Shown in pieces: positions 7,856-61,714 of a stretch of 64,000 nt of DNA; the stretch's first letter is position 1, and each line of letters starts with the position of its first letter. The DNA lies in NCBI GenBank assembly GCA_943788815.1, contig CALSRS010000003.1, positions 161,193 to 225,192 of the forward strand. The letters are read 5' to 3'. The notes under the pieces were generated by a model, which did no database searches, was not told where the DNA came from, and saw nothing but the letters and a program-made list of their open reading frames with translations. The DNA is from an uncultured Gammaproteobacteria bacterium. Lineage in GTDB: Bacteria; Pseudomonadota; Gammaproteobacteria; Eutrophobiales; Eutrophobiaceae. The translations under genes were made by a program, and so were the position numbers.

Positions 7856-8904
7856 TGGTGTCAGACTCTCTAAAATGGCTGATTATCTTCTCTGCAATTA
7901 TATTTGGATGGTTGATTTATTTATTGGCACCTATTATCACCCCATTTTTAATCTCTGGCGTTATTGCATATCTGTTTGACCCACTGGTTGACAAGTTGGA
8001 AAAGAAATTTTCCAGGACGTTCTCAGTCATTACGATATTCTTTTTAATCATAATTTTAATTCTTGGCTTATTTCTCATATTAATACCGATACTTCACAAT
8101 GAGATAGTTAAGCTTATTCAGTATGCTCCTGAGCTTTTGGTGCGTATTCAAAATGAATATTTACCCCTTATTTCAGATTTTATCGGATACGAACTTAAGA
8201 GTCTGGACATTGAAACCATTAGAAATAGTCTCAGAAATAATTGGCAGGAAGTGGGGAATCTAGCCAGTGCTATTATGTTTAACATTACGAGTTCTGGTCA
8301 GGCACTATTTACCATACTGGCCTATTTGCTTCTTATTCCCGTGGTTACATTTTATCTATTGCGAGACTGGGATGAGCTTTTGGAAAAAATGAAAATACTT
8401 ATTCCAGTAAAATTTAAAAAAACGATAATTAGCTTGTTTAATGAGTGTGACAATGTTCTCTCAGAATTCTTACGAGGTCAGTTGCTGGTAATGCTATCAC
8501 TCTCGCTAATATATTCCTCTGGACTTTGGTTAGCCGGGATTGAGTACTCCTTGTTAACTGGCTTTTTCTCTGGTTTTGTCAGTTTTGTTCCTTATCTTGG
8601 AGCTATCACAGGAATAGTGATTGCAGGTACTATTGCTTTTTTTCAGCATCAGGATCTACTGCATTTACTATTTGTTGCACTAGTTTTTGGGACGGGGCAA
8701 GCTATAGAAGGCATGATCTTATCTCCACTCCTGGTTGGTGACAGAATAGGTTTACATCCAGTTGCTGTCATTTTTGCTGTCATGGCAGGGGGGCAATTAT
8801 TTGGGTTTACGGGAATATTAATTGCCTTGCCTGTGGCAGCAGTTTTATTGGTAGTAGGGCGGTTTGTATTTGATAAATATACCATCAGTAAATTGTATTC
8901 TTGA
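7855..8904 (+). CDS. perM: AI-2E family transporter (PerM/YdiK-like permease)
   Basis: Polytopic protein with the typical C-terminal GFTGILIALPVAAVLLVVGRFVF segment. TTG-ATG-GTG occur at 7852-7860. The ATG at 7855 overlaps the stop of the upstream gene. Confidence 0.8.
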   Translation: MVSDSLKWLIIFSAIIFGWLIYLLAPIITPFLISGVIAYLFDPLVDKLEKKFSRTFSVITIFFLIIILILGLFLILIPILHNEIVKLIQYAPELLVRIQNEYLPLISDFIGYELKSLDIETIRNSLRNNWQEVGNLASAIMFNITSSGQALFTILAYLLLIPVVTFYLLRDWDELLEKMKILIPVKFKKTIISLFNECDNVLSEFLRGQLLVMLSLSLIYSSGLWLAGIEYSLLTGFFSGFVSFVPYLGAITGIVIAGTIAFFQHQDLLHLLFVALVFGTGQAIEGMILSPLLVGDRIGLHPVAVIFAVMAGGQLFGFTGILIALPVAAVLLVVGRFVFDKYTISKLYS

Positions 8905-8907
8905 AAA

Positions 8908-10551
<1,644 letters not shown>

Positions 10552-17697: not shown

Positions 17698-18189
17698 ATG
17701 CGCCATATACTCTCTTTGCTCGTTGAAAACGAAGCTGGTGCTTTGTCCCGAATATCTGGTTTGTTTTCTGCACGAGCCTTCAATATTGAGTCACTGACTG
17801 TGGCCCCGACAGAAGATGAATCGCTTTCACGCATGACAATAGTGACAACGGGTTCGGACCAGATTATTGAGCAGATCACCAAGCAGTTAAATAAGTTGGT
17901 TGATGTAATTAAGGTTATTGATCTTAATGAAAGGAATTATATTGAAAGGGAGTTATTATTGATCAAACTGGATTCGACCAAGATAGGTACCCCACAGCTG
18001 GAGTCAATTGTAAGTGAGTTTAAGGGTGTAGTGATCGACGATAGTGACAATACAATTACAATAGAATTAATCAATACAGGCGAAGTTCTGGATAGTTTTA
18101 TTGATAAACTAGAGAAAGATTGGATATTCGAAGTAGTCAGGACAGGAGTTTCAGGAATTGCCCTGGGGGCCAGTGTTATAAAATATTAA
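17698..18189 (+). CDS. ilvH: Acetolactate synthase small (regulatory) subunit
   Basis: ACT domain: LSLLVENEAGALSRISGLFSARAFNIESL. It lies 6 nt after ilvI. Confidence 0.9.
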   Translation: MRHILSLLVENEAGALSRISGLFSARAFNIESLTVAPTEDESLSRMTIVTTGSDQIIEQITKQLNKLVDVIKVIDLNERNYIERELLLIKLDSTKIGTPQLESIVSEFKGVVIDDSDNTITIELINTGEVLDSFIDKLEKDWIFEVVRTGVSGIALGASVIKY

Positions 18190-18193
18190 TTAA

Positions 18194-19228
<1,035 letters not shown>

Positions 19229-19292
19229 TCTATTCATTGAGTGTAGCTGAAATAACCATTTTAAATAATGTAGTTAAAACACAGGTAGATTA

Positions 19293-19940
19293 ATGATAAT
19301 AGCCCGAGAGATAAGGCTCACGCTGAGTATCCTTATCATTATCGCCATAATGTCTAAAGTTTACCTGGGATGGTTGCCTGCATTACTTTTACTCTGCGTA
19401 ATCTCATTAGTTGCGTATATCTTTCGAGACCCCGTATGTAATATCCCTTCGGCCCCATTGGCAATAGTCAGTCCTGTCAGTGGGACTATACTGAAAGTCG
19501 AAAGTACGACAGATACCTGGCTAAACAGACCAGCAGTAAAAATTCGTATAGGAATGTCGTATTTGGATGTACATACATTGCGAAGTCCAATAGAAGGAAA
19601 AGTAAGAAACCAGTGGGCACAATCTGATTCTGAAAAAGGAATAAAAAATCGATATACCTACTGGATACAGACTGATGAAGGGGATGACATTGTTTATTCG
19701 ATCGGTACTGTTAATTTTTCGCCATTTTTAGGAATTAATTTACGTTGTGGTGAACGCACGGGGCAGGGGCAAAAATCAGGTTATTTATACTTTTCAGGAA
19801 TTGTGGATGTCTATATTCCAGAAACTTCCAGGGTGCTTATCAATCCTGATGAGAAAATTGATGCTGGTTCAAGTATCCTTGCACTGATCATTCATAAAAG
19901 TGGAGCACAACTGACAAGTACTCAGGTCCCTGTGACATGA
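19293..19940 (+). CDS. Phosphatidylserine decarboxylase-related protein (short PSD family)
   Basis: 215 aa with an N-terminal TM segment and a C-terminal G-S-S autocleavage-like motif (DAGSSIL). It is located immediately upstream of pssA. Confidence 0.55.
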   Translation: MIIAREIRLTLSILIIIAIMSKVYLGWLPALLLLCVISLVAYIFRDPVCNIPSAPLAIVSPVSGTILKVESTTDTWLNRPAVKIRIGMSYLDVHTLRSPIEGKVRNQWAQSDSEKGIKNRYTYWIQTDEGDDIVYSIGTVNFSPFLGINLRCGERTGQGQKSGYLYFSGIVDVYIPETSRVLINPDEKIDAGSSILALIIHKSGAQLTSTQVPVT

Positions 19941-20043
19941 GATTTTGAAAGTAATGTGTGATTTTTCATCATTTATCAGGTAATTCACATTAGCCAGTAG
20001 GCTGAAAAGTTTAAACTGTGGTCTACCTGTGGTATATCAAGCT

Positions 20044-20787
20044 ATGGTAAATCGTCGACCAGGAATTTATTTATTACCCAATCTGTTTACAACTTCAGCT
20101 TTGTTTGCTGGGTTTTATTCTATTATTGCAGCAATCAATGGTCGTTTTGAGGCCGCTGCTATCGCTGTATTTGCAGCAATGATCCTGGATGGTATGGATG
20201 GCAGGATTGCCCGACTTACCAATACACAATCTGATTTTGGTACCCAGTATGACAGTCTCTCCGATATGATTTCCTTCGGACTGGCTCCCGCCTTGTTAAT
20301 TTATCAATGGTCACTATTTAATCTAGGTAAAGTTGGTTGGTCTGCTGCATTTATATATACAGCAGCGGCTGCATTGAGACTGGCACGTTTTAATACGCAG
20401 GTTGCAAATGATGATAAGCGTTATTTTCAGGGACTGGCAAGTCCACCCGCGGCAGCCCTAATCGCGGGCATAGTCTGGTTGGGAGAAAGTATTGGGATAC
20501 CAGATGATAAGGCAAATTTACTGATTACTTTACCCGTAACTGTGATAACTGGTGTATTAATGGTTAGCAATATTCGTTATCACAGTTTTAAGCAAATTGA
20601 TCTCAAAGGAAAAGTCCCCTTTGTATCAATATTGATAGTCGTTTTGGTGTTCTTTTTATTCTCGAGCAACCCACCTTTGATCCTCACATCTGTTGCATTT
20701 TGTTATGCGTGTTCAGGGCCAGCGTTTACACTTTTTATGATTCGAAAACGCCGTGCAGCAAGGAGGTTTTCCGAGGATGAGAATTGA
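20044..20787 (+). CDS. pssA: CDP-diacylglycerol--serine O-phosphatidyltransferase (CDP-alcohol phosphatidyltransferase class)
   Basis: DGMDGRIAR motif. The N-terminus RRPGIYLLPNLFTTSALFAGFY is typical of PssA. The ORF-track start is GTG at 20029. The ATG at 20044 (MVNRRPG...) is preferred. Confidence 0.85.
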   Translation: MVNRRPGIYLLPNLFTTSALFAGFYSIIAAINGRFEAAAIAVFAAMILDGMDGRIARLTNTQSDFGTQYDSLSDMISFGLAPALLIYQWSLFNLGKVGWSAAFIYTAAAALRLARFNTQVANDDKRYFQGLASPPAAALIAGIVWLGESIGIPDDKANLLITLPVTVITGVLMVSNIRYHSFKQIDLKGKVPFVSILIVVLVFFLFSSNPPLILTSVAFCYACSGPAFTLFMIRKRRAARRFSEDEN

Positions 20788-20833
20788 AATAAATACTTGG
20801 CAAATTACGATTCTACAGCTATAGTTGCGCTTT

Positions 20834-20923
20834 ATGTTTACCATCATCAAATTAAATATTCAAAGATCATTTTCTATTTCATTGCCAATCCTTGGTAATG
20901 GCTGCCTGCTCCTGCCCTGTTAG
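20834..20923 (+). promoter_or_regulatory. Candidate leu leader peptide (29 aa, MFTIIKLNIQRSFSISLPILGNGCLLLPC) / attenuator region upstream of leuA
   Basis: A small ORF in the 236-bp pssA-leuA spacer ends with three consecutive Leu codons (CTG CTC CTG). The Leu codons overlap an inverted repeat TGCCCT-gtt-AGGGCA (20913-20927). T-rich runs follow at 20946-20958. Confidence 0.35.
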
Positions 20924-21023
20924 GGCATATACTTTATACATACACTGTTTTTCCCTTTTTGATAAATTTATGTCTTAATTAGGCATGAAAACGGTATAGG
21001 TTAATGCTAAGTGGAGCATTCTA

Positions 21024-22559
21024 ATGAACGATAAATTAATCATATTTGATACAACATTACGAGATGGTGAGCAGAGTCCTGGCGCGTCCATGAACAAGGA
21101 CGAAAAAATTATGATTGCAAGGGCCCTGGAGAAATTACGTGTTGATATCATTGAAGCAGGGTTTCCTATCGCAAGTCCGGGAGATTTTGAGGCGGTTAAA
21201 GCGGTTGCTGAAGTAATATCAGATAGTGTTGTTTGTGGACTGGCCCGTACCAGCGATGCTGATATTGATGCAGCAGGAGAAGCACTAAAACCAGCCAGAC
21301 AGGCGAGGATCCATACTTTTATAGCAACCTCCCCTATTCATATGCAGCACAAATTACGAATGTCGCCAGATGACGTACTTACAACGGCTGTAAAAGCCGT
21401 GAAAAGGGCGGGGAAATATACTGACAACATTGAGTTTTCACCTGAAGATGCAGGAAGATCAGATATCGACTTTCTCTGCCAGGTTATTGAAGCTGTTATT
21501 AATGCAGGCGCGAAAACGATTAATGTTCCTGACACCGTGGGATACAGTATGCCTCATCAGTTTGGAGAGACTATCCGACAATTAATTGAAAGAGTTCCAA
21601 ACTCGGATAAGGCGATTTTTTCTGTGCATTGTCATAATGACCTGGGTCTTGCCGTATCTAATTCCTTGTCTGCAGTACTCAATGGCGCCAGGCAGGTTGA
21701 ATGCACAATTAACGGACTTGGGGAACGTGCTGGCAATGCCGCGCTGGAAGAATTAGTAATGGCCGTAAGGACACGAAGAGACATTTTCGCATGTGATACG
21801 GAAATAGATACTACTGAAATTATGAATTGTTCCAGACTAGTCTCGAATATTACCGGCTTTCCAGTTCAGCCAAATAAGGCAATAGTTGGTGCAAATGCAT
21901 TCGCTCATGAATCCGGTATACATCAAGATGGCGTAATTAAGAGCCGTGAAACATATGAAATCATGAAGGCAGAAGATGTTGGTTTAAATACCAATCGTCT
22001 GGTTTTAGGAAAACATTCAGGTCGAAATGCTTTTAAAACTAGATTAAAAGAACTGGGGTTTGAATTTAACAATGATGAAGATATGAATGCCACATTTAAA
22101 AATTTTAAACAACTAGCAGATAAAAAGCATGAAATATTTGATGAAGATCTCCAGGCCCTGGTTACAGACAGTCTTCAGGATACGTCACTTGAAAGAGTCA
22201 AGTTTGTATCATTGGCAGTAAAGACAGAGACTGGAGAAGTTCCCACAGCAGATATCATACTTACAATTGATGGGAATGAACGCAGGAACCAGTCAACAGG
22301 TGATGGTCCGGTTGATGCTGTATTTAAGGCGATAGAATCGATTTTGAATAGTGGTTGTAGTTTGCTGTTATATTCAGTCAACAGTATTACTGGTGGCACA
22401 GATTCCCAGGGAGAAGTATCTGTCAGAATGAGTAAAAATGGGCGTATCGTAAATGGCAGAGGGGCAGATACGGATATTATTGCAGCATCTGCAAAGGCAT
22501 ATATCAATGCATTGAACCGTGCAATGGGAAATGACGACAGGGAACACCCACAGTTATGA
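21024..22559 (+). CDS. leuA: 2-isopropylmalate synthase
   Basis: 511 aa: [15 protein letters not shown]...[19 protein letters not shown] sequence is present. Confidence 0.95.
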
Positions 22560-23239
22560 CCCTGAGTTTGAGTCAAAAAGAGTATCTTGATCTGATGGGT
22601 ATTGATGTTTGGGTCGCCAGAGGGAGTAGTGCAAGTAATGAAATGCAAGAAATGGAAGTAAATGAATTTCCTGCTTCGCAAACTCTCAATGAGCTAAAGT
22701 CCACGGTTTCTACCTGTACAAAATGCAGATTACATGCCGGTAGGATACAGACAGTATTTGGTGCTGGTTCACATGAAGCTGACTGGATGCTAATTGGAGA
22801 AGCACCAGGTGCCGAAGAGGATAAACAGGGAATGCCCTTCGTTGGTAGGGCGGGTAAACTCCTTACCGCCATGCTTGCGTCAATTGGATTGGACAGGGAA
22901 AAAGTTTTTATTGCAAACATTCTTAAATGTAGGCCGCCAAATAACCGAGACCCGTCGGCTGATGAGGTCCTGGCATGTGATGATTATCTGAAGACTCAAA
23001 TTAAAATTATTCAGCCCAAGATGATACTTGCTCTAGGTCGGATTGCGGCCCAAAATCTATTAAAGTCCGATGTGCCAATTGGTAAAATGAGAGGGAAGAT
23101 TTATCAATATGGAGAAGCTGAAATTCCTGTCGTAGTTACCTACCATCCAGCATATTTGTTAAGATCGCCAAGGGAAAAACGAAAGTCATGGCAAGATCTA
23201 CAACTTGCTGTTCAGTTATACAAGGGAACTGACAATTGA
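22556..23239 (+). CDS. Family-4 uracil-DNA glycosylase-like protein (4Fe-4S) with N-terminal DNA pol III psi (HolD)-like segment
   Basis: The UDG4 core is CTKCRLH...[23 protein letters not shown]...HPAYLLR. N-terminal residues 5-23, [15 protein letters not shown], resemble the E. coli psi N-terminus (RRDWQLQQLGITQWSLRR). ATGA overlaps the leuA stop, and it is located upstream of rimI as holD is in E. coli. Confidence 0.7.
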
Positions 23240-23703
23240 GTGCTGTAATCAAAGAAGATAATTTCTCATTTAGACCCATGATTGAAAATGATCTGGATGA
23301 TGTCCTGCTTATAGAAGGGCTGGTTTATAACTTTCCATGGAGTCGAAGTATATTTACCGATTGTCTGCGTGTTGGGTATTGCAGTTGGATATTACAAACT
23401 AGTAATAATGAAATTAATGCCTATGGCATTATGTCAGTTGCGGTAGGTGAGTGTCATATTCTCAATCTATGCGTACATCCCCGTTCACAACGGATGGGTT
23501 TCGGTAACAATTTATTACATTATTTATTAGATGTAGCAAGAAAGCATAGTGCAAATGTTGCATTTCTTGAAGTTAGGCCTTCAAATGACGCCGCACGTCA
23601 TCTTTATGCTAATGCCGGTTTTAATGAAGTTGGTATGCGGCGAGATTATTACCCTGCCAAAAGTGGTCGCGAAGACGCTATTATATTGGCTCGTTCAATT
23701 TAA
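23236..23703 (+). CDS. rimI: Ribosomal-protein-alanine N-acetyltransferase RimI (GNAT)
   Basis: GNAT motifs (HILNLCVHPRSQRMGFGNNLL; FLEVRPSNDAARHLY). The longest ORF starts at a TTG overlapping the upstream stop. An alternative ATG lies at 23278. Confidence 0.75.
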   Translation: MSAVIKEDNFSFRPMIENDLDDVLLIEGLVYNFPWSRSIFTDCLRVGYCSWILQTSNNEINAYGIMSVAVGECHILNLCVHPRSQRMGFGNNLLHYLLDVARKHSANVAFLEVRPSNDAARHLYANAGFNEVGMRRDYYPAKSGREDAIILARSI

Positions 23704-24663: not shown

Positions 24664-25458
24664 ATGAATGTCCTGGTATTTGATATTGAGACCATACCTG
24701 ATACTTCATCAGGCAGACTATTATACGACCTTGAAGGATTGTCAGATAAGGAAGTAGCAGAAGTGATGTTTAGTCGCCGTCGTCAAGATACAGATGGCGC
24801 GTCAGATTTTTTGCGGTTACACCTTCATAAAGTCGTAGCAATATCGGTGTTGTTAAAAACAAAAGATAGTGTAAATGTTTGGTCGCTTGGAGAACCAGAT
24901 TCAGATGAAAAAGAAATTATTAAACGTTTTTATGAAGGAATAGATAAGTATATCCCTCGGATAGTTTCCTGGAATGGACGCGGATTTGATTTACCCGTAT
25001 TGCATTACAGAGCATTGCTTTATGGCGTTAATGCTCAGAGGTATTGGGAAACAGGCAATGATGACCAGAGTTTTCGTTGGAACAATTACCTAAGCAGATA
25101 CCATGATAGACACACAGATTTAATGGATTTACTTGCTGGTTACGAATATCGTGCTGTCGCCCCGCTTGAACAGATTGCAACTATGCTTGGTTACCCCGGA
25201 AAAATGGGCATGAGTGGTGACAAAGTATGGGATACCTTTCAGGCAGGAGATATTGGTTCCATCAGGGACTATTGCGAGACAGATGTCCTGAATACGTACC
25301 TGGTCTACCTGAGATTTGAATTGATGAGAGGCAATATGACACAAGAGGTCTACCAAATGGAATGTGACTCTCTGAAAGAATTACTGGCAAAGGAATCAAA
25401 ACCTCATTTACTCGCATTTCTGGATCAGTGGAGTGCAAGAAATGACAAGACACAATAG
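24664..25458 (+). CDS. Predicted 3'-5' exonuclease, PolB-exonuclease-like (RNase H fold)
   Basis: MNVLVFDIETIPD gives the Exo I motif DIE; later YCETD. 264 aa. Confidence 0.6.
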   Translation: MNVLVFDIETIPDTSSGRLLYDLEGLSDKEVAEVMFSRRRQDTDGASDFLRLHLHKVVAISVLLKTKDSVNVWSLGEPDSDEKEIIKRFYEGIDKYIPRIVSWNGRGFDLPVLHYRALLYGVNAQRYWETGNDDQSFRWNNYLSRYHDRHTDLMDLLAGYEYRAVAPLEQIATMLGYPGKMGMSGDKVWDTFQAGDIGSIRDYCETDVLNTYLVYLRFELMRGNMTQEVYQMECDSLKELLAKESKPHLLAFLDQWSARNDKTQ

Positions 25459-27413: not shown

Positions 27414-27995
27414 ATGATAAAATTTTTAATTCACAGACTTTTACTCACAACAGGGATTATCCTTTCAGTATTGCCGGTTTATTCCATTGCACAGATTGAA
27501 TCACCTCAAGGGATTGAGGATCGAGGTCCAATCCATGCAGAGCAGCGAGAAGCAAGAAGGGCAGAATTTCTTGCCAATAATCCTGAAATTGAAGAGCGTA
27601 TGCAGCAACGTAGAGCACAAATGGAATCCCGGCGTGTAGCATTCGAAGAAAAATATCCAGAAGCAGCTGCAGAAATGCAAAGCTGGGTAGAAGCAGATAG
27701 TGAAAGCCGGCAGTTAATGCGTGAGCAAAAAGAAGTTGCTAGAGCAGAATTTGAACGTAAGTATCCACAAGCCTTTGCTGAAATGAAGGCATTGCGAGAG
27801 CAAGGCAGACAAGAGAGAGAAGCGAGGCGGGCAGAAATGGACGCGCGTCGTGGCGAGTTCGAAGCAAAGTATCCAGAAGCTGCGGCTGAACTACATTCGA
27901 TGCAAGAAGGCTTGGGTCGCCGTGGTGGTGAATTTCGTCGAGGAGAAGGAAAAGGATTTGGACCAAGGTTTGATCGGAATCAACCTGACATTTAG
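27414..27995 (+). CDS. Secreted Arg/Glu-rich tandem-repeat protein (four ~25-aa repeats, R-A-E-F-x-x-K-Y-P-E-A-A-A-E-M), Gly/Arg-rich C-terminus
   Basis: AGGAG SD sequence and a signal peptide (MIKFLIHRLLLTTGIILSVLPVYSIAQ). The internal repeats are visible at DNA level (AAATATCCAGAAGCAGCTGCAGAAATG and AAGTATCCAGAAGCTGCGGCTGAA). Confidence 0.6.
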   Translation: MIKFLIHRLLLTTGIILSVLPVYSIAQIESPQGIEDRGPIHAEQREARRAEFLANNPEIEERMQQRRAQMESRRVAFEEKYPEAAAEMQSWVEADSESRQLMREQKEVARAEFERKYPQAFAEMKALREQGRQEREARRAEMDARRGEFEAKYPEAAAELHSMQEGLGRRGGEFRRGEGKGFGPRFDRNQPDI

Positions 27996-28348: not shown

Positions 28349-28888
28349 CTGGGAAACCAAAAGGAACTGGATCGGTTTCTGGCAGAGGTAGAACGTCGGG
28401 CATACCGAATGGCTGAGATTGCGACAGGTAATGGTGATGATGCATTAGATATTTTACAGGATGCAATGTACAAGTTGGTACAAAAGTATTCCCACAAGCC
28501 TGCTGAGGAATGGGGACCATTATTCCATACGATACTTCAGAGTCGGATTATGGACTACCATCGTCGGAATACAGTACGAAATAAGTATATGGTTTGGTTT
28601 GGAAGCAAAGATGGGGACAAAGAGATCGATCCTATACAGACGGCAGTGGATGAGCATACCCTCGGGCCTGCTGCCAGTGTAGATCAGGGAATGAGCATGC
28701 AGGTCCTGGATAAAGCGATACGCGAACTTCCTGCGCGCCAACAACAGGCGTTTATGTTGAGGGCACTGGAGGGTCTGAATGTAGCTGAAACGGCGAAGAT
28801 TATGAAATGCTCACAAGGAAGTGTTAAAACACATTATTTCCGGGCGGTATCTGTATTACGAGAAAAATTAGGTGATTACAGGATATGA
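28349..28888 (+). CDS. ECF (group IV) sigma-70 family RNA polymerase sigma factor
   Basis: Region 2 (DDALDILQDAMYKLVQKY) and region 4 HTH (LRALEGLNVAETAKIMKCSQGSVKTHYFRAVSVLREKL) are present. The frame is open upstream of the first ATG (28409) back to 28295. The strong SD sequence AAGAGGGGAG (28335-28343) is followed by CTG at 28349. The ATG-only version would lack ~20 N-terminal residues. Confidence 0.7.
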   Translation: MGNQKELDRFLAEVERRAYRMAEIATGNGDDALDILQDAMYKLVQKYSHKPAEEWGPLFHTILQSRIMDYHRRNTVRNKYMVWFGSKDGDKEIDPIQTAVDEHTLGPAASVDQGMSMQVLDKAIRELPARQQQAFMLRALEGLNVAETAKIMKCSQGSVKTHYFRAVSVLREKLGDYRI

Positions 28889-29220
28889 GTAACGACAAAA
28901 CATTAGACATAGAAACAAAAATTAGAGAACGATTTAATGAAAGCGTATCAGCGTTGGACGGATCAACTTTATCCAGAATTGCGTCTGTAAGAAATCGAGT
29001 ATTGGATGTCTCGTCAGAACCGGTAAGAAATAGGTTTTTATGGATTCCTGTTGGTGCAGTAGCAACATTTTGTGCTGCTATAGTGCTTTATAGTCTAGTG
29101 CCGCAGGAAAATATGGAAAATAAAACATTCATAGATGAGGTTGATATAATCTCTGAACTGGATTTATATGAGAACCTGGAATTCTATGATTGGCTTGAAC
29201 AACATGAGTTACCTTCCTAG
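28885..29220 (+). CDS. Small single-TM membrane protein, putative anti-sigma factor (DUF3619-like by recollection)
   Basis: ATGA overlaps the sigma stop. 111 aa with a central TM (FLWIPVGAVATFCAAIVLYSLV) and an acidic C-terminus. Confidence 0.5.
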   Translation: MSNDKTLDIETKIRERFNESVSALDGSTLSRIASVRNRVLDVSSEPVRNRFLWIPVGAVATFCAAIVLYSLVPQENMENKTFIDEVDIISELDLYENLEFYDWLEQHELPS

Positions 29221-60613: not shown

Positions 60614-61714
60614 ATGTTACATAAAATTGTATTTTACCTGTCTTTACTGGTGATTAGTACAGCGGTGAGTGCGCAATCTGTCCAGGTGAATCCGGACCAC
60701 CCGGATCAATACACTGTGCAGGAAGGCGATACTTTATGGGATATCTCCGGAATGTTTTTGTTACAACCCTGGAGATGGCCAGAAATCTGGCAGGTAAACC
60801 CACAAATTGACAATCCCCATTTAATCTATCCTGGAGACGTAATCAGCTTGAGCTACGATGGAGAGTCACCAGTGTTGACAGTCTCCAGAGCTGGTATGGG
60901 TAGTAGGACTGTAAAGTTATCACCCACGATGCGAATTGAACAAACAACTCGCGCAATTAAAACCGTTCCAATTGATGTTATCAGGCCGTTTCTCACGAGA
61001 CCATTAATCGTCGAAGAAAATGAAATGGACAGCTGGCCATACATTGTATCAAGTTATGAACAGCATCTTGTGGCCAGTCCTGGTATTGAAATATATGTCC
61101 AAGGTTTAACGCCTGATTCGGTTGGAGAGAAATTTTCTATTTATCGACTTGGGACAGAATATGTCAGCCACTCTCGTGGACACCGTGAGGTTCTTGGTTA
61201 TGAGTCTATATATATTGGTGATGCAGAAGTAAAAGCTTTTGGTAATCCGTCTACAGTCAATATTACTCATGCAGTAAAAGAAGTGGTGAATGGAGATAGG
61301 TTGATTTTGCCATCAGATGAGGAAATTTATACTAGTTTTATTCCCAGCAGATCGTCGTCTGATATAACCGGAAGTATAATTTCTGCAGAGGGTGTCTTAA
61401 CTGAAATTGGCCAATACCAGGTTGTTGTACTTGACCGCGGCAGTAACGACGGCGTGGAGGTTGGGAATGTTTTTGGTGTGTATCAAAGCGGTGTTGTAGT
61501 GGAAGATAAAGTCAGAAACACTAAGAAATCTTATGAAGATACAGATTTGATAGATTACCTGGGTATGATGAAATCAAGAGGTGAGTCTGTCACTTTGCCT
61601 GATTACAGAGCTGGCGTTGTTATGGTATTTCGTACCTTTGACAAGGTAAGTTATGGATTAGTAATGGAAGCACTAGGTCCAATTCATCTCAATGATGCAA
61701 TTAAAAGTTTTTAA
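60614..61714 (+). CDS. LysM peptidoglycan-binding domain protein (TsaP-like)
   Basis: Signal peptide then LysM (YTVQEGDTLWDISGMF...PGDVISL). The position upstream of dprA matches the pseudomonad PA0020/TsaP arrangement. The ATG at 60614 has an AAGG SD sequence. The ORF-track start at 60548 adds 22 aa ahead of the signal peptide. Confidence 0.7.
   Translation: MLHKIVFYLSLLVISTAVSAQSVQVNPDHPDQYTVQEGDTLWDISGMFLLQPWRWPEIWQVNPQIDNPHLIYPGDVISLSYDGESPVLTVSRAGMGSRTVKLSPTMRIEQTTRAIKTVPIDVIRPFLTRPLIVEENEMDSWPYIVSSYEQHLVASPGIEIYVQGLTPDSVGEKFSIYRLGTEYVSHSRGHREVLGYESIYIGDAEVKAFGNPSTVNITHAVKEVVNGDRLILPSDEEIYTSFIPSRSSSDITGSIISAEGVLTEIGQYQVVVLDRGSNDGVEVGNVFGVYQSGVVVEDKVRNTKKSYEDTDLIDYLGMMKSRGESVTLPDYRAGVVMVFRTFDKVSYGLVMEALGPIHLNDAIKSF

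Follow-up and report, generated by a model that had tools for sequence, protein, structure and literature searches.

The closest described systems to the gene studied here are the psi subunit (HolD) of the bacterial replicase and the family-4 uracil-DNA glycosylases (UDG4s). The psi protein of Escherichia coli (PF03603; PDB 1EM8, 3SXU and, for a peptide, 3GLI) consists of 137 amino acids and has neither the Fe-S cysteines, the GEAPG and HP(A/S)xxLR motifs nor the enzymatic activity of a UDG4. Its N-terminus binds the collar formed by three gamma/tau (DnaX) subunits of the clamp loader (PMC11436948), and chi (HolC) is bound by the psi core, not by the N-terminus (PMC3197488, PMC11436948, PMC11044049). 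HolC has been listed in alpha-, beta- and gammaproteobacteria and HolD in the gamma class only (PMC3290774), and the 2004 chi-psi structure paper, as cited in PMC3197488, reports that psi was undetectable in several chi-containing genomes. Here we describe a gene, designated psi-UDG4, located in a 64,000-nucleotide stretch of contig CALSRS010000003.1 from an uncultured gammaproteobacterium (the whole stretch is referred to as the window). The gene codes for a psi-type N-terminal peptide followed by a linker and a complete UDG4 domain and is placed as holD is in E. coli. It probably represents the psi that has been "missing" in many proteobacteria, and the form from which E. coli psi descended.

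A second kind of psi, the "cryptic" psi of pseudomonads (Pseudomonas aeruginosa PA4679, 278 amino acids; Jarvis et al. 2005, as cited in PMC3197488 and PMC8879598), resembles the window protein in several respects. It has the N-terminal motif (RRRAFLGAMQITSWLPR, nearly the same as that of the UDG extension), a disordered linker, which is long, and a core larger than that of E. coli psi. Its gene overlaps rimI and is essential, the protein was missed by homology searches, and it retains UDG4-like segments. Cys-x2-Cys, GEAPG and the motif-B His are not evident in its sequence as read, without position-by-position examination. The linker of the P. aeruginosa protein binds single-stranded DNA and its psi function has been proven biochemically, whereas that of the window protein is a prediction. 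Psi is often essential, as in P. aeruginosa and Acinetobacter baylyi (PMC8879598, PMC3290774), and E. coli holD mutants are reported to be very sick (PMC4900610).

The N-Terminal Peptide of psi-UDG4

The open reading frame (ORF) is as the preliminary description of the window gave it, and the coordinates of its parts are collected in Table 1. No solved UDG4 aligns ahead of residue 39-43 of the 227-amino-acid product, residues 1-42 being extra. The alignment-based AlphaFold2 (AF2) model has a short helix at residues 5-13, with a predicted local distance difference test (pLDDT) score of ~66, ahead of the disordered linker; a single-sequence AlphaFold model (pLDDT 35) was unusable and was replaced by the alignment-based one. 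The motif Q-x-x-Y-L-x-L-M-G-I-D-V-W-x-x-R stands at the very start of each of the 120 best matches among more than 8000 homologues. In an alignment of 86 relatives, which reaches down to ~60% identity, position 11 is always Leu, and conservation is 90% or higher at Q7, Y10 and G15. Q7 is not kept beyond the closest relatives, and the wider set has mostly R-R-x-x-Y-L-x-A-M-G-I. The peptide and linker that precede the Cys-x2-Cys pair vary in length among relatives from ~40 to more than 300 residues. A loose regular expression for the motif matched background ORFs at a rate of 0.026 per 1000 amino acids. The betaproteobacterial variant has one extra residue (L-x-E-L-G-L-x-x-x-W-V-R-R) and is usually followed by a low-complexity linker, of up to ~150 amino acids in Burkholderia.

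Partial motifs that do not include the Trp were found in the UDG4s of two lineages outside the beta and gamma classes, Acidithiobacillus sulfurivorans (locus L065, FLKLLGLAVP) and a Mariprofundus metagenome-assembled genome (locus L075, YLREIGVHTP). There was no rimI in the flanks searched, which extended at most 6 kb per side. In these proteins the peptide may be at an early stage or in decay.

A trivial origin of the peptide would be a mis-called start. Translation would then begin at M14, M30 or M33, all internal, and what looks like a peptide would be an untranslated sequence overlapping the end of leuA. No strong Shine-Dalgarno sequence precedes the ATG at 22556, and some database entries begin MGIDVW (P0051, P0077), as such a start would have it. 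Nonetheless, the conservation of the residues upstream of M14, among them the invariant L11 as well as Q7 and Y10, argues against a mis-called start, and this conservation holds where leuA is not the upstream gene. Furthermore, P. aeruginosa psi is functional only as the long form that includes the N-terminal motif (PMC8879598). We consider an annotation artefact hardly credible.

The resemblance of this peptide to the N-terminus of psi was assessed by comparing families. The HolD and psi-UDG4 families match at their N-termini with a probability of 87% (E 4e-6, hhalign), and for the betaproteobacterial variant the values are 92% and 5.8e-7. A hidden Markov model (HMM) of the HolD N-terminus, 28 positions long, gave a median of 7.9 bits on 120 psi-UDG relatives. 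Scores of at least 10 bits were obtained for 31 of the 120, always in register at residues 1-22, and the maximum among 2400 decoys with shuffled N-termini was 4.9 bits. When 58 isolated peptides of 27 amino acids were compared to Pfam, PF03603 (DNA_III_psi) was the commonest family, although the matches were weak (9 of 58, best E 0.016). Vibrio psi begins with a sequence (EKQYLHEMGISTWEL) that can hardly be told apart from the UDG extension (QQQYLKEMGIDVWV). At the level of families, a peptide like the one with which psi binds the clamp loader is therefore found at the extreme N-terminus of psi-UDG4, the window sequence alone giving a weak signal. The profile alignment thus upheld the earlier suggestion of a psi-like N-terminus for the family, and for the single sequence it did so weakly. 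The statement made with it, that the psi N-terminus binds chi, is wrong; the partner is the DnaX (gamma/tau) collar, and chi binds the core (PMC11436948, PMC3197488).

An exhaustive phmmer search for HolD recovered 193 representatives among 1.84 billion proteins, which makes HolD a narrow family. Its named members belong to the Enterobacterales, Vibrionaceae and Pasteurellaceae, and none of the 193 has the length of a UDG. A homology search with E. coli HolD in a set of 5.8 billion proteins had only close enterobacterial relatives among the matches listed. A second holD was not found in the window when its six-frame ORFs were scanned with the HolD HMM, a 64-kb scope that is uninformative for the genome. 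Ten small ORFs of the window had no chi or psi match in Pfam; no search aimed at holC was made.

The Uracil-DNA Glycosylase Domain

The claim that the rest of the protein is a complete family-4 UDG is well founded. The protein scores 224.4 bits against the NCBIfam model TIGR00758 (UDG_fam4; cut-off, 125.3), and its residues 68-216 match the Pfam UDG family PF03167 with 129.9 bits (E 1e-37; threshold, 24.3). Residues 2-179 of Thermus thermophilus UDGA (1ui0) align to residues 43-216 with an E of 2.8e-46 (phmmer), and the Sulfolobus tokodaii and Thermotoga maritima enzymes gave similar results. The domain belongs to the UDG alpha/beta fold. The T. thermophilus (UDGA, 1UI0), T. maritima (TM0511, 1L9G/1VK2) and S. 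tokodaii (4ZBX) proteins share with it this fold, the four cysteines of the [4Fe-4S] cluster, GE(A/G)PG, PFVG, N and HPAYLLR, at an identity of 34-40%. These characterised UDG4s start at the equivalent of residue 43 and have neither the psi-type peptide nor the linker. We know of no characterised UDG4 with a linkage to rimI or one that is essential.

GE(A/G)PG, HP(S/A)xxLR and the four Cys of UDG4s are all present in the window protein. The preliminary description had named three Fe-S cysteines in the form CTKC...C. The pair C54 and C57 is there as described, but the ligands are four rather than three, the others being C125 and C141. It had also listed GEAPG and HPAYLLR, both of which are in place, and the catalytic residues of motif A are intact by comparison with the 86 relatives and the solved UDG4s. 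Among the 86 relatives, G81, A83, P84 and G85 never vary, and the conservation of E82 is at least 90%. F95 (in PFVG), N121 and H197 also match 1ui0 and are invariant or nearly so in these relatives. Taken together, these features suggest that the protein is an active uracil glycosylase carrying a [4Fe-4S] cluster.

Source databases name the relatives "uracil-DNA glycosylase" or, wrongly, "DNA polymerase". The latter is a JGI label found on several of them (P0019, P0049, P0050, P0070, P0096, P0101, P0388), carried over from the UDG-like N-terminal domain of the phage SPO1 polymerase. NCBIfam has no model for the fusion of a psi peptide to a UDG4.

Gene Order and Distribution

The neighbourhood of the gene was compared in 80 loci recovered from named genomes. 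The gammaproteobacterial loci come from Methylococcales, Chromatiales, Steroidobacteraceae, Thiotrichales, Nevskiales, Legionella and Arenicellales, and the betaproteobacterial ones from Burkholderia, Paraburkholderia, Thiobacillus, Gallionella and Mycoavidus. The motif is carried at 73-75 of the 80 and is absent from the two loci labelled Phycisphaerae and Bacteroidota. The rimI gene adjoins psi-UDG4 in 65 loci, downstream of it in Gammaproteobacteria (51) and upstream in Betaproteobacteria (14). The order tsaB-rimI-udg was seen in Burkholderia cenocepacia, the one betaproteobacterial locus checked with Pfam. In E. coli, as the preliminary description had noted, holD lies immediately upstream of rimI; the two genes also overlap. 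A position directly beside rimI is thus shared by the window gene, its relatives at those 65 loci, and the holD genes of E. coli and P. aeruginosa. The Legionella brunensis psi-UDG4 keeps the motif without having rimI as a neighbour.

Apparent Relationship between the psi Core and the UDG4 Domain

Compared with E. coli psi, the window protein has a disordered linker of ~20 amino acids and roughly 70 more core residues, and it does not match PF03603. Beyond the peptide, two segments of HolD aligned with the UDG family in hhalign comparisons, both collinear with the N-terminal match. HolD residues 52-71 (PLVSDVLRALTVSPDQVLQL) align with UDG residues 101-120, and HolD residues 102-131 (QVASPALTELRANPTARAALWQQI) with UDG residues 192-221. 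The stretch that follows motif B aligns with the C-terminal motif of psi, SPxLxxLxxxPxAKRxLWQQI.

The pseudomonad psi, whose sequence was obtained from a P. aeruginosa holD-rimI locus that a primer published in the PMC8879598 supplement had located on metagenome contigs, was then included in the comparison. Pfam finds no domain in this protein, neither PF03603 nor UDG. Its family is related to the HolD core with an E of 1.3e-6 and has three weak, collinear matches to the UDG family. The first joins the segment GEPFxSRDPxYLLLKDLLRAAGL to UDG4 (E 0.017), another joins the N-termini of both families (E 0.02), and the last joins LmeEPxxKxeLW (P. aeruginosa residues 252-266) to UDG residues 201-215 (E 0.17). 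As a single sequence, P. aeruginosa psi reached an E of 0.03 only against the UDG profile. The alignments of HolD with UDG4, of P. aeruginosa psi with HolD and of P. aeruginosa psi with UDG4 are mutually consistent. In NCBI and UniRef, the validated pseudomonad psi subunit (L092 holD and proteins P0456-P0568) is named "energy transducer TonB" or "protein TonB", a misnaming probably due to its Pro/Ala-rich linker.

A first hhalign comparison limited to the cores, in which narrow alignments were used, was marginal (local z ~3, global z ~2). Enriched profiles were built from the psi core, HolD and pseudomonad sequences together, and from the UDG core, 121 sequences including Betaproteobacteria. 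These profiles gave a local score of 29.2 (E 2.3e-4, 99 columns) and a global score of 24.9 (E 1e-4, 118 columns). Ten unrelated real families compared with the psi core scored 9.5-15.2 locally and 0.2-4.7 globally, and 60 block-shuffled templates scored 13.6 +/- 2.6 (maximum 21.3) and 2.2 +/- 1.4 (maximum 7.1), respectively. The core signal became clear only after the addition of the pseudomonad psi and the betaproteobacterial UDG4 sequences. The UDG4 core also has a structural match to psi, beside the collinear sequence similarity. The psi core thus appears to be homologous to the UDG4 domain and, as the two cores align, psi and psi-UDG4 appear to be one lineage and not two. Of two origins considered in the preliminary description, one, in which a UDG-like protein performs the psi function or gave rise to it, has computational support in the peptide, the complete UDG4, the holD position and the core homology. 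The data do not point to the other, the recruitment of a chi-binding peptide by a UDG.

Essentiality of Candidate psi-UDG4 Genes

Published mutant collections include genes that may be members of this family. The Neisseria meningitidis gene NMV_2063 (738 bp; gene order tsaB-rimI-NMV_2063), annotated as a "putative DNA glycosylase", is one of 391 that resisted disruption and were classed as essential, whereas mutants are listed for ung, holC, rimI and pyrE, the last lying downstream of it (PMC7606547, Supplementary Data 3, 4, 8). We take NMV_2063 to be a psi-UDG4 because the gene order is identical to that of B. cenocepacia. In Legionella pneumophila, lpg0262 (UDG superfamily, K21929) was essential in all four transposon sequencing (Tn-seq) analyses and its neighbours were not (PMC7811196 Data Set S1). 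Its assignment as a psi-UDG4 is made because the L. brunensis psi-UDG4 is likewise found without a rimI neighbour. Essentiality is unexpected for a repair enzyme and typical of psi.

These data bear on the main alternative, in which the protein is a repair UDG tethered to the replisome and nothing else. The peptide would bring the UDG to the clamp loader or compete with psi. The protein would have no psi role and would not bind chi, and a separate cryptic psi would be encoded elsewhere in these genomes. The strong conservation of the catalytic and Fe-S residues is in keeping with this idea, as it indicates that an enzymatic role is clearly selected. Moreover, another cryptic psi could well hide from detection, since the pseudomonad one was missed by homology searches and has no Pfam match. 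Tethering also has precedents. Archaeal UDG4 is held by PCNA following the same logic. In humans, UNG2 is held at fork components, PCNA and RPA, by a short N-terminal peptide and a flexible linker (PMC8053108). The tethered enzymes differ from the window protein in that their partner is the sliding clamp or RPA, not the clamp-loader collar, and their peptides are unrelated. Furthermore, UNG2 belongs to another UDG family and none of them is a structural subunit of the replicase. Against this alternative stand the holD position beside rimI, the alignment of the psi core with the UDG core, and the essentiality in Neisseria and Legionella, which would not be expected of a mere repair enzyme when ung can be dispensed with. 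Given the synteny, the core homology and the essentiality data, we regard it as unlikely.

Proposed Role of psi-UDG4 in the Replisome

The explanation that we prefer is that the gene is orthologous to holD in both position and sequence and has retained a working UDG4 enzyme, which we hold to be likely, on sequence and position, with reasonable though not full assurance. By analogy with E. coli psi, peptide 1-22 would bind across the collar of three DnaX (tau/gamma) subunits, and the disordered linker of ~20 residues would tether the UDG body, placing one UDG-fold body per clamp loader at the fork. This body is predicted to excise uracil from DNA near the fork. [quoted passage not shown] Clamp-loader binding, chi binding and glycosylase activity of psi-UDG4 are all predictions drawn from comparison with these relatives. 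Canonical psi, as found in E. coli and Vibrio, and the cryptic pseudomonad form would be descendants that have lost the Fe-S cluster and the active site and kept the peptide, the fold and the place adjacent to rimI. In its widest form the proposal is more tentative, and we give it slightly less than an even chance. It states that in most Betaproteobacteria and many Gammaproteobacteria the missing psi is an active Fe-S UDG4 bridging DnaX and chi/SSB, that their replisome has a built-in uracil glycosylase, and that the E. coli-type and pseudomonad psi are catalytically dead relics.

Several results weigh against the orthology with holD. The window protein by itself reaches just 3.8-5 bits on the HMM of the HolD N-terminus, with an E of 0.54 when the 565 six-frame ORFs of the window are scanned. 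It did not match PF03603 even at E values up to 1. A profile of the N-terminal peptide compared with PDB sequences gave chance matches only and did not retrieve psi, and the HolD profile retrieved psi chains only from the same sequences and none of the UDG4 structures. The hhalign probabilities of the core-to-core alignments are just 30-45%. Finally, the orthology of NMV_2063 and lpg0262 was deduced from the way these genes are annotated and arranged and not by comparing sequences. Since the window sequence alone is not significant, the case rests on the family-level evidence. A spurious-looking short ORF at window positions 61341-61511 (- strand) reaches 8 bits on the HolD N-terminal HMM, above psi-UDG4 itself, which shows how weak single-sequence matches to a 28-residue motif are.

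The same weakness, together with the shortness of the motif, could mean that the N-terminal segment has nothing to do with the clamp loader and resembles psi by convergence or chance. It could instead be a contact for RimI or TsaB, a beta-clamp motif (QxxYLxLM) or an intramolecular regulatory segment. The tight linkage with rimI and tsaB would be compatible with the first of these. The arrangement Q7-x-x-Y-L-x-L-M, which we take to be loosely like clamp-binding peptides, would be compatible with the second. The lack of conservation of Q7 in the family at large led us to reject the beta-clamp-binding motif as a candidate. An unrelated motif is also hard to reconcile with the family profiles (E 4e-6 and 5.8e-7), which match in register at the extreme N-terminus of both families, and with the retention of the motif in Legionella in the absence of rimI linkage. 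The independent similarity of the core and of the structure to psi makes a coincidence unlikely. We judge it improbable that the motif is unrelated to the clamp loader.

Full-text literature searches returned no paper connecting psi/HolD with UDGs; they did not cover fold-classification databases, where a structural note of the similarity may exist. The orthology of psi-UDG4 with holD would resolve a documented mismatch, as psi is known from only a part of the Gammaproteobacteria and chi is found across the alpha, beta and gamma classes. It provides a concrete and widespread candidate for the missing psi subunit, offers an evolutionary origin for psi, namely a dead UDG4, and makes the old question of the missing psi directly testable. 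If true, it would explain the essential "putative DNA glycosylase" of N. meningitidis and L. pneumophila and would mean that the bacterial replicase includes a DNA-repair enzyme. Thousands of genes would receive a corrected annotation, and a protein essential in pathogens, with an enzymatic pocket and a peptide-protein interface, would become available as a possible drug target at both sites.

Genomic Context of psi-UDG4

The features of the locus are listed in Table 1. The window has a G+C content of 38.5%, and a protein identical to its psi-UDG4 is encoded on 23 public contigs.

Table 1. Coordinates of psi-UDG4, its parts and its neighbours in the window, and of the P. aeruginosa gene used for comparison.
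Feature	Position	Strand	Description	Basis
psi-UDG4 coding sequence	22556..23239	+	227 aa plus stop; psi-type peptide, linker, UDG4 domain	ORF list and sequence
psi (HolD)-type N-terminal peptide, residues 1-22	22556..22621	+	putative DnaX-collar-binding motif	
Linker, residues 23-43	22622..22684	+	variable, disordered	pLDDT <50 for residues 21-41
Fe-S family-4 UDG domain, residues 44-227	22685..23236	+	complete	
C54-T-K-C57	22715..22726	+	first [4Fe-4S] ligand pair; invariant	aligned with Cys of 1ui0, 4zbx, 1vk2
Motif A, GEAPG, residues 81-85	22796..22810	+		aligns with GEGPG/GEAPG of solved UDG4s
C125 and C141	22928-22930 and 22976-22978	+	remaining two ligands; invariant in alignment	matched to solved UDG4s
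Motif B, HPAYLLR, residues 197-203	23144..23164	+	H197 to R203 invariant	
leuA	21024..22559	+	stop overlaps psi-UDG4 start as ATGA	Pfam HMGL-like, HCS_D2, LeuA_dimer
rimI	23236..23703	+	TTG start 23236 or ATG 23278	TIGR01575, 121 bits
P. aeruginosa holD	L092:9396-10232		psi, 278 aa, begins MIEEQRRRAFLGAMQITSWLPRQP	

The gene that follows psi-UDG4 is rimI, as had been proposed. ATGA overlaps had been described on both sides of psi-UDG4. The one with the leuA stop is real. At the other junction, AATTGAGTG, an overlap is possible only with the TTG start of rimI, and it would read TTGA; public gene callers place the rimI start at ATG 23278, 38 nt past the psi-UDG4 stop. There is thus no ATGA coupling with rimI in the window. 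The P. aeruginosa holD stop and rimI ATG do overlap as ATGA (GAGATTCAATGAGCG, L092:10216-10236), which is the coupling that had been assumed for the window.

No convincing terminator was seen between leuA, psi-UDG4 and rimI in a promoter and terminator scan, and the spacing of the genes suggests that the three may be co-transcribed. As the promoter and terminator counts of the region were not above those of shuffled sequence, the operon claim rests on spacing. The best sigma-70-like promoter match of the region (10/12) is located within positions 20797-20927 (+ strand). After it comes a GC-rich hairpin that has a T-run and lies ~100 nt upstream of the leuA ATG. This promoter-hairpin element may be a leu leader or attenuator.

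The block upstream of psi-UDG4, ilvH-ilvC-psd-pssA-leuA (window 17698-22559), is partly conserved, with leuA within 6 kb in 35 of the 80 loci and pssA in 39. On public ENA contigs that encode the identical UDG, ilvC, leuA or ilvI is split into two gene calls (L002:5647-6566 and 8468-10004; L003:3411-5136), while each is a single ORF in the window. The split calls are probably frameshift errors of those assemblies.

Two genes past rimI, at 24664-25458 (+ strand), there is a further DNA-metabolism gene of the same-strand cluster, whose predicted product is a 3'-5' exonuclease with a relationship to the exonuclease domain of PolB (PF10108, E 2e-94). Its homologues were found in just 2 of the 80 loci, so its linkage to psi-UDG4 is not conserved. 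Further downstream, two ORFs without a Pfam match (27414-27995 and 28885-29220, + strand) flank a gene for a sigma factor of the extracytoplasmic function (ECF) type at 28409-28888. The second of them overlaps the stop of the sigma factor gene and could code for an anti-sigma factor.

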